From Escherichia phage EmilieLinder_Bas103, in the sequence record PQ850602.1: DNA of 40,176 nt; one strand, written 5' to 3'. This document shows positions 2,867 to 11,258 of the stretch, piece by piece. The notes below the pieces were generated by a model. It was not told the origin of the DNA. It worked only from the letters and a program-made list of their open reading frames with translations, and ran no database searches. Numbering within the stretch: position 1 is the stretch's first letter; the number at the start of each line of letters is the position of its first letter. Both the position numbers and the translations under genes were made by a program.

Positions 2867-2889
2867 CAATTCGACTCACTATAGGGAGA
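2867..2889 (+). promoter_or_regulatory. T7 RNAP promoter phiOR
   Basis: CAATTCGACTCACTATAGGGAGA, close match to 23-bp T7 promoter consensus; +1 G about 2884; upstream of gene 19.5. Confidence 0.8.
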
Positions 2890-3193: not shown

Positions 3194-3432
3194 GGTCTTC
3201 CTGACCGACTGATGGCTCACCGAGGGATTCAGCGGTATGATTGCATCACACCACTTCATCCCTATAGAGTCAAGTCCTAAGGTATACCCATAAAGAGCCT
3301 CTAATGGTCTATCCTAAGGTCTATACCTAAAGATAGGCCATCCTATCAGTGTCACCTAAAGAGGGCCTTAGAGAGGGCCTAAGGAGTCCCTAGAGGGTCC
3401 TTTAAAATATACCATAAAAATCTGAGTGACTA

Positions 3433-3591
3433 TCTCACAGTGTACGGACCCAAAGTTCCCCCATAGGGGTCCCTAAAGCCCAGCCAATCACCTTGAGTCA
3501 ACTTTCAGTTGACTTTGAGGGTCCCTAAGGGTTGGGGTTGGTCCTTTGGGTTTGTCTTTGAGTGTTGCTTTGAGTGTCTCTTTGTGTCCCT
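3433..3591 (+). repeat. Terminal repeat (single copy, as at a concatemer junction); mature genome ends predicted here
   Basis: Begins TCTCACAGTGTACGGACC and ends ...GTGTCTCTTTGTGTCCCT, matching T7 160-bp direct terminal repeat from memory; only one copy in window, so repetition is inferred. Confidence 0.6.
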
Positions 3592-3602
3592 ATCTGTTAC
3601 AA

Positions 3603-3732
3603 CCTCCTAAAGTCACCTCCTAAAGTCACCTCCTAAAGTCACCTCCTAAAGTCACCTCCTAAAGTCACCTCCTAAAGTCACCTCCTAAAGTCACCTCCTA
3701 AAGTCACCTCCTAAAGTCACCTCCTAAAGTCA
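3603..3732 (+). repeat. Perfect tandem array: 10 x 13-bp unit CCTCCTAAAGTCA
   Basis: Directly counted 10 identical head-to-tail 13-bp units immediately right of the terminal repeat; T7 has irregular CCTAAAG-containing repeats here. Confidence 0.95.
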
Positions 3733-3893
3733 TTCCTACCGTCTACAGCCTAAAGCCTAAACCTAAAGACCCATCAAGTCAACGCCTATCTTAAAGTATC
3801 CTCTAAAGACCAGCCTAAAGCCTATCCCTAAAGCCTATCCTATAGATGCCCTGTTGTTGCCTATAAAGAGATAATCTTCAATCATTGTCTTTC

Positions 3894-3916
3894 TAATACG
3901 ACTCACTATAGAGAGA
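3894..3916 (+). promoter_or_regulatory. T7 RNAP promoter phiOL (variant, GAG at +1..+3)
   Basis: TAATACGACTCACTATAGAGAGA; one change from consensus in the initiating region. Confidence 0.7.
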
Positions 3917-5670: not shown

Positions 5671-6750
5671 GTGAACATCACCGACATCATGAACGCTATC
5701 GACGCAATCAAAGCACTGCCAATCTGTGAACTTGACAAGCGCCAAGGTATGCTCATCGACTTACTGGTAGAGATGGTCAACAGCGAAACATGCGATGGAG
5801 AGCTAACCGAACTGAATCAGGCACTTGAGTTTCAAGACTGGTGGACTACCTTGAAGTGTCTCACGGCTGACGCAGGGTTCAAGATGCTCGGTAATGGTCA
5901 CTTCTCGGCTGCTTATAGCCACCCGCTGCTGCCTAACAGAGTGATTAAGGTGGGCTTTAAGAAAGAGGATTCAGGCGCAGCATACACCGCATTCTGCCGC
6001 ATGTATCAGGGCCGTGCCGGTATCCCTAACGTCTACGATGTACAGCGTCACGCTGGATGCTATACGGTTGTACTCGATGCACTGAATGATTGTGAGCGTT
6101 TCAACAATGATGAACATTATAAATACGCTGAGATTGCAAGCGACATCATTGACTACAAATCAGATGAGCACGATGAGCTAACTGGGTGGGATGGCGAGTT
6201 CGTTGAGACTTGCAAGCTAATCCGCAAGTTCTTTGAGGGTATCGCTTCGTTCGACATGCACAGTGGGAACATCATGTTCGATGATAATGATGTACCATAC
6301 ATTACCGACCCTGTATCGTTCTCACAGAAGAAAGACGGTGGCTCGTTCAGTATTGACCCTGAGGAACTCATCAAGGAAGTCGAGGAGGTCGCACGTCAGA
6401 AGGAAATTGACCGCGCTAAGGAACGTAAAGCACGTCATGTGGGTCGATTGGAGGCACGCAGATTCAAACGTCGCAACCGCAAGGCACGTAAAGTACACCA
6501 AGCGAAGCACAAGCGAATGGTCGCTGCGTGGCGAATGGCTGAACGTCAAGAACGACGTAACCATGAGAGAGCTGTAGATGTACTAGGAAGAACCGATAAC
6601 GCTATGCTCTGGGTCAACATGTTCGCTGGGGACTTTAAGGCGCTTGAGGAACGAATCGCAGCGCACTGGTGTAAAGCTGACCGAATGGCTATCGCTAATG
6701 GTCTTCCGCTTAACATCGACAAGAAACTTGACGCAATGCTAATGGGCTGA
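5671..6750 (+). CDS. 0.7: Ser/Thr protein kinase / host transcription shutoff protein (gp0.7)
   Basis: 359-aa ORF, GTG start; near-identical to T7 gp0.7 including the basic C-terminal region. Confidence 0.95.
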
Positions 6751-6820: not shown

Positions 6821-9472
6821 ATGAACACGATTAACATCGCTAAGAACGACTTCTCTGACATCGAACTGGCTGCTATCCCGTTCAACACTCTGGCTGACCA
6901 TTACGGTGAGCGTTTAGCTCGCGAACAGTTGGCCCTTGAGCATGAGTCTTATGAAATGGGTGAAGCACGCTTCCGCAAGATGTTTGAGCGTCAACTTAAA
7001 GCGGGTGAGGTTGCGGATAACGCTGCCGCTAAGCCTCTCATTACTACTCTGCTCCCCAAGATGATTGCACGCATCAACGATTGGTTTGAGGAAGTGAAAG
7101 CTAAGCGCGGTAAGCGCCCGACAGCCTTCCAGTTCCTGCAAGAAATCAAGCCGGAAGCGATAGCGTACATCACCATTAAGACAACTCTGGCTTGCCTAAC
7201 GAGCGTAGACAATACAACCGTTCAGGCTGTAGCAAGTGCAATCGGTCGAGCTATTGAGGACGAGGCGCGCTTTGGTCGAATCCGTGACCTTGAAGCTAAG
7301 CACTTCAAGAAAAACGTTGAGGAACAACTTAACAAGCGCGTAGGGCACGTCTACAAGAAAGCATTCATGCAGGTTGTAGAAGCGGATATGCTCTCTAAGG
7401 GTCTACTTGGTGGCGAGGCGTGGTCTTCGTGGCATAAGGAAGACTCCATTCACGTTGGTGTGCGCTGCATTGAGATGCTCATTGAGTCCACCGGAATGGT
7501 TAACTTACATCGTCAAAATGCTGGCGTAGTAGGGCAAGACTCGGAGACTATCGAACTTGCACCGGAATACGCTGAGGCTATCGCAACCCGTGCAGGTGCG
7601 CTTGCTGGTATCTCTCCGATGTTCCAGCCTTGCGTAGTTCCTCCTAAACCGTGGACTGGTATTACTGGTGGTGGATATTGGGCTAACGGTCGTCGTCCTC
7701 TGGCACTGGTGCGTACTCACAGCAGGAAAGCACTGATGCGCTACGAAGACGTTTACATGCCTGAGGTGTACAAGGCGATTAACATTGCGCAAAACACCGC
7801 ATGGAAAATCAACAAGAAAGTCCTAGCGGTAGCCAACGTAATCACCAAGTGGAAGCATTGCCCTATAGAGGACATCCCAGCGATTGAACGTGAAGAACTC
7901 CCGATGAAACCGGAAGACATCGACACGAATCCTGAGGCTCTCGCTGCATGGAAACGTGCTGCTGCTGCTGTGTACCGCAAGGACAAGGCTCGCAAGTCTC
8001 GCCGTATCAGCTTAGAGTTCATGCTTGAGCAAGCCAACAAGTTCGCTAACCATAAGGCCATCTGGTTCCCTTACAACATGGACTGGCGCGGTCGCGTTTA
8101 CGCTGTGTCAATGTTCAACCCGCAAGGTAACGACATGACCAAAGGACTGCTGACGCTGGCTAAAGGAAAACCAATCGGCAAGGAAGGTTATTACTGGCTG
8201 AAAATCCACGGTGCAAACTGTGCTGGTGTCGATAAGGTTCCGTTCCCTGAGCGCATCAAGTTCATTGAGGACAACCATGAGAACATCATGGCTTGCGCTA
8301 AGTCTCCACTGGAGAACACTTGGTGGGCTGAGCAAGATTCTCCGTTCTGCTTCCTCGCGTTCTGCTTTGAGTACGCTGGGGTACAGCACCACGGCTTAAG
8401 CTACAACTGCTCTCTTCCGCTGGCGTTCGATGGGTCTTGCTCTGGCATTCAGCACTTCTCCGCTATGCTCCGAGATGAGGTTGGTGGTCGCGCTGTTAAC
8501 CTTCTGCCTAGCGAAACCGTTCAGGACATCTACGGGATTGTCGCTAAGAAAGTCAATTTGATTCTGCAAGAAGACGTAATCAACGGAACCGACAACGAAG
8601 TAGTTACCGTGACTGATGAGAACACTGGTGAAATCTCTGAGAAAGTCAAGCTGGGCACTAAGGCGCTGGCTGGTCAGTGGTTGGCTTACGGTGTAACACG
8701 TAGCGTGACTAAACGTTCAGTAATGACTCTGGCTTACGGGTCCAAAGAGTTCGGCTTCCGTCAACAAGTGCTGGAGGACACCATTCAGCCAGCAATTGAT
8801 TCCGGTAAGGGTCTGATGTTCACGCAACCGAATCAGGCTGCTGGATACATGGCGAAACTGATTTGGGAAGCTGTTAGCGTTACGGTGGTAGCCGCTGTGG
8901 AGGCAATGAACTGGCTCAAGTCCGCTGCTAAGCTGCTGGCTGCTGAGGTCAAAGATAAGAAGACTGGAGAGATTCTTCGCAAGCGTTGCGCTGTACATTG
9001 GGTAACTCCTGATGGGTTCCCAGTGTGGCAGGAATACAAGAAGCCAATTCAGACTCGCTTGAACCTGATTTTCCTCGGTCAGTTCCGCTTACAGCCAACC
9101 ATTAACACTAACAAGGATAGCGAGATTGATGCACACAAACAGGAGTCCGGTATTGCTCCTAACTTTGTACACAGCCAAGACGGTAGTCACCTGCGTAAGA
9201 CTGTAGTGTGGGCGCATGAGAAGTACGGCATCGAGTCTTTTGCATTGATTCACGACTCCTTCGGGACCATTCCGGCTGACGCTGCTAACCTGTTCAAAGC
9301 TGTTCGCGAAACTATGGTGGACACCTATGAGTCTTGTGATGTACTGGCTGACTTCTATGACCAGTTCGCTGACCAGTTGCATGAGTCTCAACTTGACAAA
9401 ATGCCAGCACTTCCGGCTAAAGGTAACTTGAACCTCCAAGACATCCTTAAGTCAGACTTCGCGTTTGCGTAA
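6821..9472 (+). CDS. 1: T7-type single-subunit DNA-dependent RNA polymerase (gp1)
   Basis: 883-aa ORF, about 98 percent identical to T7 RNAP from memory; specificity-loop ...QPNQAAGYM... (Asn as in T7), consistent with the T7-type promoters in this window. Confidence 0.98.
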   Translation: MNTINIAKNDFSDIELAAIPFNTLADHYGERLAREQLALEHESYEMGEARFRKMFERQLKAGEVADNAAAKPLITTLLPKMIARINDWFEEVKAKRGKRPTAFQFLQEIKPEAIAYITIKTTLACLTSVDNTTVQAVASAIGRAIEDEARFGRIRDLEAKHFKKNVEEQLNKRVGHVYKKAFMQVVEADMLSKGLLGGEAWSSWHKEDSIHVGVRCIEMLIESTGMVNLHRQNAGVVGQDSETIELAPEYAEAIATRAGALAGISPMFQPCVVPPKPWTGITGGGYWANGRRPLALVRTHSRKALMRYEDVYMPEVYKAINIAQNTAWKINKKVLAVANVITKWKHCPIEDIPAIEREELPMKPEDIDTNPEALAAWKRAAAAVYRKDKARKSRRISLEFMLEQANKFANHKAIWFPYNMDWRGRVYAVSMFNPQGNDMTKGLLTLAKGKPIGKEGYYWLKIHGANCAGVDKVPFPERIKFIEDNHENIMACAKSPLENTWWAEQDSPFCFLAFCFEYAGVQHHGLSYNCSLPLAFDGSCSGIQHFSAMLRDEVGGRAVNLLPSETVQDIYGIVAKKVNLILQEDVINGTDNEVVTVTDENTGEISEKVKLGTKALAGQWLAYGVTRSVTKRSVMTLAYGSKEFGFRQQVLEDTIQPAIDSGKGLMFTQPNQAAGYMAKLIWEAVSVTVVAAVEAMNWLKSAAKLLAAEVKDKKTGEILRKRCAVHWVTPDGFPVWQEYKKPIQTRLNLIFLGQFRLQPTINTNKDSEIDAHKQESGIAPNFVHSQDGSHLRKTVVWAHEKYGIESFALIHDSFGTIPADAANLFKAVRETMVDTYESCDVLADFYDQFADQLHESQLDKMPALPAKGNLNLQDILKSDFAFA

Positions 9473-9480
9473 CGTCAAAT

Positions 9481-9503
9481 TAATACGACTCACTATAGAG
9501 GGG
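9481..9503 (+). promoter_or_regulatory. T7 RNAP promoter phi1.1A
   Basis: TAATACGACTCACTATAGAGGGG. Confidence 0.85.
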
Positions 9504-9556
9504 ACAAACTCAAGGTCATTCGCAAGAGTGGCCTTTATGATTGACCTTCTTCCGGT
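9503..9556 (+). promoter_or_regulatory. RNase III processing hairpin R1.1
   Basis: ACTCAAGGTCATTCGCAAGAGTGGCCTTTATGATTGACC hairpin between the two 1.1 promoters. Confidence 0.5.
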
Positions 9557-9579
9557 TAATACGACTCACTATAGGGGAA
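9557..9579 (+). promoter_or_regulatory. T7 RNAP promoter phi1.1B
   Basis: TAATACGACTCACTATAGGGGAA. Confidence 0.85.
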
Positions 9580-9657
9580 CCTTAAGGTTTAACTTTAAGA
9601 CCCTTAAGTGTTAATTAAAGATTTAAATTAAAGAATTACTAAGAGAGGACTTTAAGT

Positions 9658-9789
9658 ATGCGTAACTTCGAAAAGATGACCAAACGTTCTAACAGTAACG
9701 CTCATGACAGCTTCGAGGCAACCAAGGGCCGCAAGTTTAATAAACCATTACGCACCCGTGCTCATAAACGCTGCTGGGAGAGTCAATAA
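9658..9789 (+). CDS. 1.1: gp1.1-like small basic protein
   Basis: 43-aa ORF MRNFEKMTKRSNSNAH... with RBS gagagga; matches T7 gp1.1; absent from ORF track. Confidence 0.75.
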   Translation: MRNFEKMTKRSNSNAHDSFEATKGRKFNKPLRTRAHKRCWESQ

Positions 9790-9790
9790 G

Positions 9791-10063
9791 ATGGGACGTT
9801 TATATAGTGGCAATCTGGCAGCATACAAAGATGCTATCAAGCGCCTAAGAGAAGACCATGCCGTCGATGTGGTCACTGAGACTTATCGACGTGAAGACTA
9901 CGCACAGCGCCGATGGGTAGCTGGCGAGACTCTTCGAGTGGTCTTGCGGAATGGCGTAGAGCTAACATCCAAGAGGTTCGAACAGTCAGACGAAGACGTT
10001 CGCTGTAACGCACAGACGGAATGGCTCCGTAAGGTACACAGTGATTTGAAGCACTGGAAGTAA
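9791..10063 (+). CDS. 1.2: gp1.2-like protein (T7 gp1.2 inhibits host dGTPase Dgt); conserved termini, divergent core
   Basis: 90-aa ORF from ATG 9791 (MGRLYSGNLAA... ...DLKHWK); ORF track frame extends upstream to 9704 but the T7-like start is at 9791. Confidence 0.75.
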   Translation: MGRLYSGNLAAYKDAIKRLREDHAVDVVTETYRREDYAQRRWVAGETLRVVLRNGVELTSKRFEQSDEDVRCNAQTEWLRKVHSDLKHWK

Positions 10064-10083
10064 TACGACTCAGTATAGGGACA
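10061..10083 (+). promoter_or_regulatory. T7 RNAP promoter phi1.3
   Basis: TAATACGACTCAGTATAGGGACA (the characteristic G at -5 of T7 phi1.3). Confidence 0.85.
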
Positions 10084-10122
10084 ATGCTTAAGGTCGCTCA
10101 TTGAGTGGCCTTAGTCATTTAA
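10084..10122 (+). promoter_or_regulatory. RNase III processing hairpin R1.3
   Basis: TTAAGGTCGCTCATTGAGTGGCCTTAGTCATT hairpin upstream of ligase gene. Confidence 0.5.
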
Positions 10123-10143
10123 CCAAACATGGAGATAAACATT

Positions 10144-11205
10144 ATGATGAACATTAAGACCAGCCCATTTAAAGCCGTGTCTTTCGTAGAGTCTGCCATT
10201 AAGAAAGCTCTGGATAACGCTGGGTATCTTATTGCTGACATTAAGTACGATGGTGTGCGTGGTAACATCTGCGTAGACAATACTGCTAACTGCTGCTGGC
10301 TCTCTCGTGTGTCTAAAACGATTCCGGCACTGGAGCACTTAAACGGATTCGATGTTCGCTGGAAGCGTCTGCTGAACGATGACCGTTGCTTCTACAAAGA
10401 TGGCTTTATGCTAGATGGTGAACTCATGGTCAAGGGCGTAGACTTTAACACAGGGTCTGGCCTACTGCGCACCAAGTGGCTCAACAAGAATAACTTTGAG
10501 TTCGACGTTGGCGGTGTACCTCCGCTCAAGGGGTCCAAGGTTGAGTTCGCGTTGGACACCAAACGTCTGAGTGTCAAACTGTACGCTATCCTCCCTCTGC
10601 ACATCGTGGAGTCTGGGGAAGACTATGATGTCATGACGTTGCTCATGCAGGAACACGTTAAGAACATGCTGCCTCTGCTACAGGAATACTTCCCTGAAAT
10701 CGAATGGCAAGCGGCTGAATCTTACGAGGTCTACGATATGGTAGAACTACAGCAACTGTATGAGAAGAAGCGTGAAGAAGGCCATGAGGGTCTCATTGTG
10801 AAAGACCCGATGTGCATCTATAAGCGAGGCAAGAAGTCCGGCTGGTGGAAAATGAAGCCTGAGAACGAGGCTGATGGTGTTATCCAAGGTCTTGTATGGG
10901 GTACGAAAGGTCTGGCTAACGAAGGAAAAGTGATTGGCTTTGAGGTGCTTCTTGAGAGTGGTCGTGTAGTAAACGCCACAAACATCTCTCGCGCCTTAAT
11001 GGACGAGTTCACGGCTAAGGTTAAACAGACCATTAGCTTCCGTGAGGACTTTGAGGACTTCGGGGCCGAACCCGAAGACACCAACCCATACCACGGGTGG
11101 CAGTGCCAGATTAGCTACATGGAGGAAACACCTGATGGCTCTCTGCGTCACCCATCGTTCGTAATGTTCCGTGGTACCGAGGATAACCCTAAAGAGAAAA
11201 TGTAA
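10144..11205 (+). CDS. 1.3: ATP-dependent DNA ligase (gp1.3)
   Basis: 353-aa ORF from MMNIKTSPFKAV...; adenylation lysine motif DIKYDGVRG; matches T7 ligase; ORF track offers upstream ATG 10129. Confidence 0.93.
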   Translation: MMNIKTSPFKAVSFVESAIKKALDNAGYLIADIKYDGVRGNICVDNTANCCWLSRVSKTIPALEHLNGFDVRWKRLLNDDRCFYKDGFMLDGELMVKGVDFNTGSGLLRTKWLNKNNFEFDVGGVPPLKGSKVEFALDTKRLSVKLYAILPLHIVESGEDYDVMTLLMQEHVKNMLPLLQEYFPEIEWQAAESYEVYDMVELQQLYEKKREEGHEGLIVKDPMCIYKRGKKSGWWKMKPENEADGVIQGLVWGTKGLANEGKVIGFEVLLESGRVVNATNISRALMDEFTAKVKQTISFREDFEDFGAEPEDTNPYHGWQCQISYMEETPDGSLRHPSFVMFRGTEDNPKEKM

Positions 11206-11209
11206 TCAC

Positions 11210-11243
11210 ACTGGCTCACCTTCGGGTGGGCCTTTCTGCGTTT
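11210..11243 (+). terminator. Early transcription terminator TE (intrinsic, host RNAP)
   Basis: GC-rich hairpin GGCTCACC-TTCG-GGTGGGCC followed by TTTCTGCGTTT; identical in form to T7 TE. Confidence 0.85.
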
Positions 11244-11258
11244 ATAAGGAGACACTTT

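Follow-up and report, generated by a model that had tools for sequence, protein, structure and literature searches.

Gene 1.2 of Escherichia phage EmilieLinder_Bas103 is a recombinant: both of its ends are of the T7 type, and codons 12-88 between them belong to the Berlinvirus-type class of alleles, which is 90 amino acids (aa) long. The window analyzed here is the entire stretch of 40,176 nucleotides in record PQ850602.1, taken 5' to 3' on one strand, and represents a whole T7-like genome, to which all positions below refer (Table 1). We consider it quite probable that this chimera was produced by homologous recombination, that its product would still inhibit the host dGTPase (Dgt), and that escape from the F-plasmid abortive-infection protein PifA was the most likely benefit of the exchange.

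The allele, its Berlinvirus affinity within a Teseptimavirus backbone, and the likely link to PifA resistance have already been published for phage JeanTinguely, and because that case is nearly identical, the finding is real but ordinary. The present analysis adds crossover points mapped within a few bases; conserved gene ends that double as recombination arms, the left one formed by the codons of the N-terminal 'warhead' and the right one by the phi1.3 promoter; the coincidence of the Dgt contacts with conserved residues; and the delineation of discrete allele classes that cross genera and evolve under purifying selection.

Gene 1.2 and the predicted fold of its product

The gene opens with the ATG at 9791 and closes with the TAA at 10061-10063 (complete open reading frame (ORF) of 90 codons plus stop: MGRLYSGNLAAYKDAIKRLREDHAVDVVTETYRREDYAQRRWVAGETLRVVLRNGVELTSKRFEQSDEDVRCNAQTEWLRKVHSDLKHWK), and its product reads MGRLYSGNLAAYKDAIKRL...SDLKHWK. 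This protein is a genuine member of the T7-like gp1.2 family of dGTPase inhibitors: it scores 46.3 bits against Pfam PF10922 (cutoff 22), with residues 1-90 aligned to profile positions 1-85, matches PHROG 2949 end to end (E = 2.9e-34), and in a phmmer search retrieves PDB entries 2MDP (E = 8e-10) and 7U65 chain G (E = 1e-9), both proteins being covered end to end. The initial annotation, which was made from the sequence alone, gave the coordinates of this gp1.2 homolog exactly, and its description of T7-like termini is accurate as well: residues 1-11 are identical to those of T7 gp1.2, and the C-terminus is LKHWK, compared with LKDWK in T7. Its estimate that about 60 central residues differ is fair; in the DNA, the foreign sequence spans codons 12-88 (9825-10052). 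An identical copy of the protein, looked up by exact sequence in a collection of 15 billion proteins, was absent.

Table 1 Features of gene 1.2 and its surroundings in the window
Feature	Coordinates	Strand	Basis or remark
RNAP, T7-type, 883 aa	6821-9472		upstream of gene 1.1
Gene 1.1, 43 aa	9658-9789	+	Pfam PF08200, E = 3e-12
Gene 1.2, dGTPase-inhibitor homolog of 90 aa, 90-aa 'Berlinvirus-type' allele class	9791-10063	+	full-length matches to PF10922, PHROG 2949, and PDB 2MDP/7U65
T7-backbone-type codons 1-11 (MGRLYSGNLAA), left homology arm/crossover zone, N-terminal 'warhead'	9791-9824	+	site-by-site comparison
Imported Berlin-type segment, codons 12-88: rest of helix alpha1, three beta strands, most of helix alpha2	9825-10052	+	identity profiles
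20-nt block ACTGGAAGTAATACGACTCA, right crossover zone: last gene 1.2 codons, stop, upstream half of phi1.3	10053-10072	+	alignment
Promoter phi1.3, TAATACGACTCAGTATAGGGACA	10061-10083	+	T7-type promoter scan; overlaps gene 1.2 TAA
Gene 1.3, DNA ligase, 358 aa	10129-11205	+	ORF list and annotations of relatives

The longest ORF in this region, which starts at 9704 and encodes 119 aa, was rejected as the gene, the family match beginning only at its residue 30, that is, at the ATG at 9791. The record of phage 64795_ec1 annotates a long form of the gene 1.2 ORF. Two minus-strand ORFs (9898-10101 and 9873-10013) have no PHROG match. Transcription in T7-like phages proceeds from one strand only.

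The gene order RNAP, 1.1, 1.2, phi1.3, ligase is the same as in T7, with genes 1.1 and 1.2 abutting (the gene 1.1 stop, TAA at 9787-9789, ends one base before the gene 1.2 ATG). The scan for T7-type promoters yielded 10 matches, with 0 expected, and phi1.3 is exactly the T7 sequence annotated at 6409 in the T7 genome.

Overall, the 90-aa gp1.2 of the window is 40% identical to the 85-aa protein of T7, and has five extra residues, namely, EDH following helix alpha1 and two within the beta1-beta2 region. The relationship is detectable in the divergent center as well: residues 14-80 give a local BLOSUM62 score of 57 against T7 gp1.2, compared with 23.8 +/- 4.5 for 300 shuffles, and the family motifs R53, G55, F63, D67-E-D-V70, N73, T76, and W78-L79 are retained there. 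An AlphaFold2 (AF2) model built from an alignment of 81 sequences (mean pLDDT 82) comprises a helix (6-23), three strands (25-36, 41-52, 57-63), and a second helix (68-89), in the layout H-E-E-E-H. This predicted fold conforms to the pattern of the family seen in 2MDP, a three-stranded antiparallel sheet under two helices. The top PDB match of the model in a Foldseek search is 7U66_G, the Dgt-bound T7 gp1.2 (TM 0.85/0.90, rmsd 2.0 A, 35% identity), followed by 7U65_G, also T7 gp1.2 with Dgt, and then by the NMR structure 2MDP. Because the best matches of the model are all structures of T7 gp1.2, the fold is predicted to persist through the divergent center. Altogether, the window protein has in common with T7 gp1.2 (PDB 2MDP; 7U65-7U67) the family, the fold, the synteny, the N-terminal warhead, and the motifs DEDV, T.WL, and L..W.

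Mosaic structure and crossover zones

Over bases 1-25000, identity of the window is 98.1% to phages AnnaIndermaur (Bas104) and JeanTinguely (Bas64), as against about 92% to T7 and JacobBurckhardt. Compared with the latter two phages in 50-nt bins, identity is mostly 0.88-1.0 over 9000-9700, with isolated lower bins against JacobBurckhardt; declines to 0.70-0.80 (T7) and 0.62-0.80 (JacobBurckhardt; 0.62 in the 9800 bin) in 9700-9800; falls to 0.30-0.50 in the core, 9850-10050; and at 10050 rises sharply to 0.98. Like AnnaIndermaur, AV103, and EG1, the window has a variant 3' half of gene 1.1 (about 9700-9775), whose identity to T7 is only about 76%. In the low-identity stretch, 40-nt bins show 62-90% identity between the window and BA14, whose flanks are otherwise unlike those of the window.

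Site-by-site comparison locates the transitions. Within 9791-9824, there is 1 mismatch between the window and T7, compared with 10 between the window and BA14. The switch to BA14-type sequence occurs at 9825 (TAC, as opposed to TTC in T7), and this type continues through 10052. The following 20-nt block (10053-10072) is identical in all seven phages aligned (7/7), BA14 included. From 10073 on, at the positions that determine the specificity of phi1.3, the window again coincides with T7, whereas the BA14 promoter differs. The junctions at 9825 and within 10053-10072 thus delimit a foreign segment of 228 bp, codons 12-88. The conserved ends of gene 1.2, themselves backbone DNA, served as the crossover sites and provided the homology for them; the N-terminal codons are kept alike by protein function and the 3' end by the promoter.

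BA14 gp1.2 occupies the same slot between genes 1.1 and 1.3 and is about 82% identical to the window protein (about 79-80% at the nucleotide level). The window differs from BA14 in its T7-type codons 1-11, in its T7-type promoter downstream of the stop, and in the genus to which its backbone belongs. With the best match from outside Teseptimavirus, BA14, reaching only about 79% nucleotide identity, the transfer appears to be old or to have come from an unsampled lineage. The closest known counterpart is JeanTinguely (MZ501081), a Teseptimavirus isolated on E. coli K-12, whose gp1.2 (QXV80864.1) is 98.9% identical to that of the window, with the single difference E77A, and 99% identical at the nucleotide level. 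The core is 100% identical up to about 10000 and 93-95% identical in the bins at about 10000-10030, and the T7-type flanks and the junctions are the same; the two genomes differ in the 3' end of the ligase gene and the downstream homing-endonuclease region. AnnaIndermaur has flanks about 100% identical to those of the window, but its gene 1.2 is just 62-84% identical (81% for the protein), which indicates repeated exchange at this locus among very close relatives. Judging from these sequence comparisons, the gene 1.2 locus is an exchange hotspot.

Two accounts that the initial annotation had set against its own reading of a divergent core are contradicted by these data. Uniform divergence was rejected because a sharp-edged patch appears in the sliding profiles against T7, JacobBurckhardt, BA14, AnnaIndermaur, AV103, 64795_ec1, and JeanTinguely, identity to T7 being 92-98% in the flanks and only 30-50% in the core. 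The chance that the core is an artefact, that is, a compensated frameshift or a sequencing error within a T7-type gene, is negligible. The alternative frames score at the null level (28 and 19 for the other frames of T7 gene 1.2 against the window core, 22 and 26 for the other frames of the window against the T7 core), compared with 57 in frame; a frameshift would leave at least 90% nucleotide identity in the core, rather than 30-50%; and independent isolates share the sequence (99% nucleotide identity in JeanTinguely, 91% in 64795_ec1, 88% in AV103). It is also very unlikely that the allele was replaced through co-conversion driven by a homing endonuclease of the HNH family encoded between genes 1.2 and 1.3 that was later lost or never transferred. 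An HNH ORF does lie directly 3' of phi1.3 in AnnaIndermaur, Yanou, and 64795_ec1, and AnnaIndermaur, with its flanks of about 100% identity, departs from the window precisely in gene 1.2 and the HNH insertion. However, neither the window nor JeanTinguely has an endonuclease there, and the spacer between genes 1.2 and 1.3 is 100% T7-type (10053-10099). Moreover, the HNH gene of AnnaIndermaur shares only about 63% identity with that of Yanou/64795_ec1, and the two adjoin different gp1.2 sub-variants, which argues against a simple linkage between HNH gene and allele.

Allele classes of gp1.2

The gp1.2 family is small and limited to T7-like phages: the profile search identified 142 members, with 16 representatives in a library of 1.8 billion representatives. 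In a sample of 81 sequences, identity to the window gp1.2 falls into two separate ranges, 0.31-0.40 with 53 sequences and 0.64-1.0 with 28, and no value lies between them. We accordingly assigned proteins to the 90-aa class by identity of at least about 64% to class members, as opposed to at most 40% to the 85-aa class. The window protein fits the 90-aa class by its length of 90 residues, the EDH insertion, and an insertion before the second strand. Its identity to gp1.2 of BA14, EG1b, AV103, Yanou, and 64795_ec1 is 79-98%, and BA14 and the rest of the class (285P, Kvp1, FE44, PYPS50, and others) are likewise 90 aa long and share its two insertions compared with T7. The phage database contains 64 records with at least 60% identity to the window protein and 373 with less; the T3-like and Klebsiella-phage sub-classes lie at 50-61%. 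The gp1.2 of T3 and T7M (Teetrevirus, 92 aa; the T7M gene is identical to that of T3, PMC3276506) is 57% identical to the window protein and falls within the same 90-aa super-class. Its annotation is that of a dGTPase inhibitor able to overcome F exclusion. It forms a clearly separate sub-class, and its properties are not simply transferable to the window protein.

The classes do not follow phage taxonomy. Within Teseptimavirus, the 85-aa class is found in T7 and JacobBurckhardt and the 90-aa class in JeanTinguely, 64795_ec1, AV103, Yanou, and the window phage; within Berlinvirus, BA14 has the 90-aa class and Yepe2 the 85-aa class. The EG1 genome has both classes, as two genes in tandem, and K1F encodes an 87-aa relative of the 85-aa class. 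Among megablast-level matches to the 1-kb region, the core is covered in 13 of the 217 records, so the window allele is in the minority among T7-like backbones.

Across all classes, the low-entropy columns are 1-9, 15, 18-19, 24, 27, 48-49, 53, 55, 63, 67-70 (DEDV), 73, 76, 78-79, 86, and 89, with M1, G2, R3, Y5, S6, G7, N8, D67, E68, D69, V70, T76, W78, L79, L86, and W89 invariant or nearly so; columns 29-47 and 54-66 are highly variable. From this entropy profile, conserved ends and a variable center are a pattern of the whole family and no peculiarity of the window protein. Within the 90-aa class, many core columns have an entropy of at most 0.5 bits. Pairwise Nei-Gojobori dN/dS between the window and seven members is 0.04-0.14 over the gene as a whole; residues 14-66 give 0.13-0.28 and the ends 0.01-0.11. 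These comparisons stay inside the class because between classes the divergence has reached saturation. On these estimates, gene 1.2 of the 90-aa class is under purifying selection; positive selection within the class was rejected, pairwise dN/dS being below 0.3 everywhere.

Dgt contacts, PifA, and the meaning of the swap

In the structure of T7 gp1.2 with E. coli Dgt (Klemm et al. 2022, PMC9478638), the N-terminus of the inhibitor (G2, R3) inserts in the Dgt active site and helix alpha1 lies between two subunits; Y5, S6, G7, A10, and V65 are named as contacts with monomer A and F12, K13, and Y28 as contacts with monomer E, and the remainder of the protein is described as contact-free and hanging into solvent. 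Eight of these 10 contacts are identical in the window protein (G2, R3, Y5, S6, G7, A10, K13, and V70, which corresponds to V65 of T7), and F12 is conservatively replaced by Y; the comparison omits Dgt position 193, which is V in the K-12 translation and F193 in PMC9478638. T7 Y28, which stacks on Dgt R436, is without an aligned aromatic residue, pairing with V28 or T31 depending on the alignment, and the insertion E21-D22-H23 lengthens helix alpha1 beside the Y28 interface. Given the conserved contacts, Dgt inhibition is likely to be retained. As in T7, the de-formylated N-terminus (G2, R3) would enter the Dgt active site, with helix alpha1 wedged between two Dgt subunits and dGTP or GTP held in a non-catalytic pose, an arrangement that would preserve dGTP for phage DNA synthesis. 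Mutants of T3 gene 1.2 also reportedly fail on optA1 hosts, which overproduce Dgt; if this is correct, the 90-aa super-class would inhibit Dgt. A literature search for published tests of Dgt inhibition by gp1.2 of the 90-aa Berlin class found none. Because gp1.2 is non-essential on wild-type E. coli (PMC9478638), growth of these phages on K-12 is no proof that they inhibit Dgt, nor does co-occurrence on K-12 establish inhibition of E. coli Dgt by both classes.

With the Dgt contacts conserved and the rest of gp1.2 free of contacts, the swap apparently replaces mainly surface that does not touch Dgt. The exchange would alter the beta-sheet exposed to solvent and, on helix alpha2, the outward-facing side; the altered protein would most likely no longer trigger PifA or, possibly, other sensors of gp1.2. 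JeanTinguely has been described as a PifA-resistant Teseptimavirus whose gp1.2 allele is Berlinvirus-like, and T7 and JacobBurckhardt as PifA-sensitive (Maffei et al., PMC8594841); PifA resistance correlates with one gp1.2 clade (2025 BASEL paper, PMC11990801). PifA sensitivity is associated with the T7 allele (85 aa), whereas the window allele is not of the T7 type. In the part of PMC3276506 that cites Schmitt and Molineux 1991, F exclusion needs T7 gp1.2 or gp10, and T3 gp1.2 prevents it; according to a preprint, the ApeA defense is triggered by T7 gp1.2, too (PMC11482910). The link to PifA is correlative and imperfect: a Kayfunavirus with another gp1.2 variant is an exception, being PifA-sensitive, and the capsid protein gp10 also contributes (PMC11990801). 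Considering the plating of JeanTinguely and the correlation with allele class, escape from gp1.2-sensing defenses, PifA first, appears to be the most probable selective meaning of the swap.

Two other explanations bear on this conclusion. In the initial annotation, the divergent core was proposed to reflect adaptation to a different host Dgt allele, in which case the allele class would track the dGTPase of the usual host. An alignment of Dgt from 79 Enterobacteriaceae genomes offers some grounds for this: positions that bind gp1.2 vary by genus (R137 is R/K/S; H182, H/Q/W/Y; H227, H/N/D/S/T/R; R436, R/Q/H/S/G; F437, F/L/I), Klebsiella Dgt has a distinct set (S137/W182/S436/L437), and the partner of the only unmatched contact, T7 Y28, is the variable R436. 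We nevertheless find such adaptation quite improbable, the core having been imported whole. Escherichia and Shigella show no variation in the contact set, save for H227, which differs in most sequences, and P233T in one; a single E. coli K-12 strain was the isolation host of JeanTinguely and JacobBurckhardt, which carry opposite classes; both classes are represented among phages of Escherichia, Salmonella, Yersinia, and Erwinia; EG1 holds both in one genome; and nine of the 10 contacts are identical or conservative, the divergent part being the surface that hangs into solvent (PMC9478638). Dgt co-evolution may be relevant to the gp1.2 family at large, but the isolation of both classes on the same K-12 strain, the conserved contacts, and the import of the allele argue that it is no explanation here, and PifA escape appears to fit the evidence better. 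The arms race that had been suggested along with it fares differently in its two parts: no such signature is seen with respect to Dgt (within-class dN/dS 0.04-0.14), and an arms race with defense sensors of gp1.2 is plausible, PifA being the candidate in the literature (PMC8594841, PMC11990801) and ApeA a further one in a preprint (PMC11482910). Together, the conserved Dgt contacts, the discrete cross-genus classes under purifying selection, and the mapped junctions turn arms-race hypotheses toward host sensors of gp1.2 rather than Dgt. The genomes of the T7 group are mosaics, and it is conceivable, if somewhat unlikely, that gene 1.2, lying between two short recombining conserved blocks, was swapped without any selective meaning. 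Consistent with such neutral mosaicism, there are other mosaic patches nearby, in the 3' half of gene 1.1 and in the ligase gene at about 10450-10600 and about 11000-11100, and gp1.2 is non-essential on ordinary hosts (PMC9478638). Against it, the classes are discrete and each is well conserved inside (core dN/dS 0.13-0.28), exchange at the locus is repeated even between genomes with 98-100% identical flanks, and the published PifA-sensitivity phenotype segregates with the allele.

The 228-bp segment represents a clean cassette for allele swaps. Apart from passive escape from PifA, the core of the 90-aa class might provide an additional functional surface for actively blocking PifA or some other gp1.2 sensor, such as ApeA. 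This reading draws on the statement in the same part of PMC3276506 that T3 gp1.2 'prevents' F exclusion and on the conservation of the core within the class (dN/dS 0.13-0.28), and we regard it as rather unlikely. If it holds, EG1-like phages would keep tandem alleles because the two proteins do different jobs.

Mosaic patches around gene 1.2

The 3' half of gene 1.1, immediately upstream of gene 1.2, contains a distinct variant patch that differs from T7 by a 3-nt indel as well as by substitutions (see table). The same variant is present in AnnaIndermaur, AV103 and EG1, and comparison of the patch with BA14 revealed no BA14 likeness. The mosaic is thus built of at least two layers on its left side.

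Two more patches of low identity lie in the ligase gene (gene 1.3). In the first of these, only T7 is divergent (0.45-0.76), whereas the other Teseptimavirus relatives retain identity of at least 0.88; the second is poorly conserved with respect to every relative compared. The 3' end of the ligase gene (11150-11250) is unlike those of JeanTinguely and JacobBurckhardt, in both of which a homing endonuclease that is missing in the window overlaps the ligase end.

In AnnaIndermaur (PQ850595, 3001-3712, compared with window positions 9791-10128), the flanks of gene 1.2 are approximately 100% identical to those in the window, but gene 1.2 itself shows only 80% nucleotide and 81% amino acid identity. 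This phage also carries an HNH endonuclease ORF between the phi1.3 promoter and the ligase gene, and a different HNH ORF (about 63% nucleotide identity) occupies the same site in Yanou and 64795_ec1. The distinct gene 1.2 of AnnaIndermaur, together with the HNH insertion, may reflect homing-associated co-conversion.

Ahead of gene 1, the window is about 3.6 kb longer than T7 (RNAP gene at 6821 vs 3171), and JeanTinguely and AnnaIndermaur likewise contain extra sequence there relative to T7. Two matches to T7-type promoters were detected far upstream of the RNAP gene (see table).

Features of the window and the EG1 gene pair
Feature	Genome	Position	Properties
T7-type promoter match	window	2867-2889	far upstream of RNAP gene
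T7-type promoter match	window	3894-3916	far upstream of RNAP gene
Gene 1.1 variant patch	window	9700-9775	~76% identity to T7
Ligase patch	window	10450-10600	low identity to T7 alone
Ligase patch	window	11000-11100	identity 0.30-0.64
First gp1.2 gene	EG1		88 aa; 85-aa class; C-terminus LKDWKEAL
Second gp1.2 gene	EG1		90 aa; Berlin-class

Gene 1.2 in EG1 and 64795_ec1

Escherichia phage EG1 (MG488277, 3235-3773) has a tandem pair of gp1.2 genes (see table). The joint between the two genes (GACTGGAAG followed by GAGGCACTCTAATGGG) is the same as the gene 1.1/1.2 junction of BA14, in which gp1.1 ends in NWKEAL, so that the duplication looks like the product of a crossover at the common CTGGAAG microhomology. 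In 64795_ec1 (KU927499), gene 1.2 is entered in GenBank as a 118-aa 'hypothetical protein ORF5' (3417-3773) that starts within gene 1.1. With the homologous ATG lying at 3501, the annotated start appears to be mis-called.

Host Dgt residues contacted by gp1.2

Among 79 Enterobacteriaceae Dgt sequences, gp1.2-contacting residues differ between host genera at R137, H182, H227, R436 and F437, with a mean of 2.9 distinct residues per column at contact positions vs 2.1 in other columns. Klebsiella and Raoultella share the set S137/W182/S436/L437; such variation could be relevant to gp1.2 of Klebsiella phages. Dgt F193 has been described as a backbone hydrogen-bond partner of gp1.2 Y5 (PMC9478638), whereas residue 193 in the translated K-12 dgt (L013, 1238-2755) is V, in the context L-V-H. 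This mismatch may be a matter of numbering or typography, and the contact comparison leaves out position 193. Two records titled Enterobacter hormaechei chromosomes (CP170191 and CP169086) contain Dgt 100% identical to that of E. coli K-12, compared with about 85% identity for the remaining Enterobacter sequences, and may be mislabelled.
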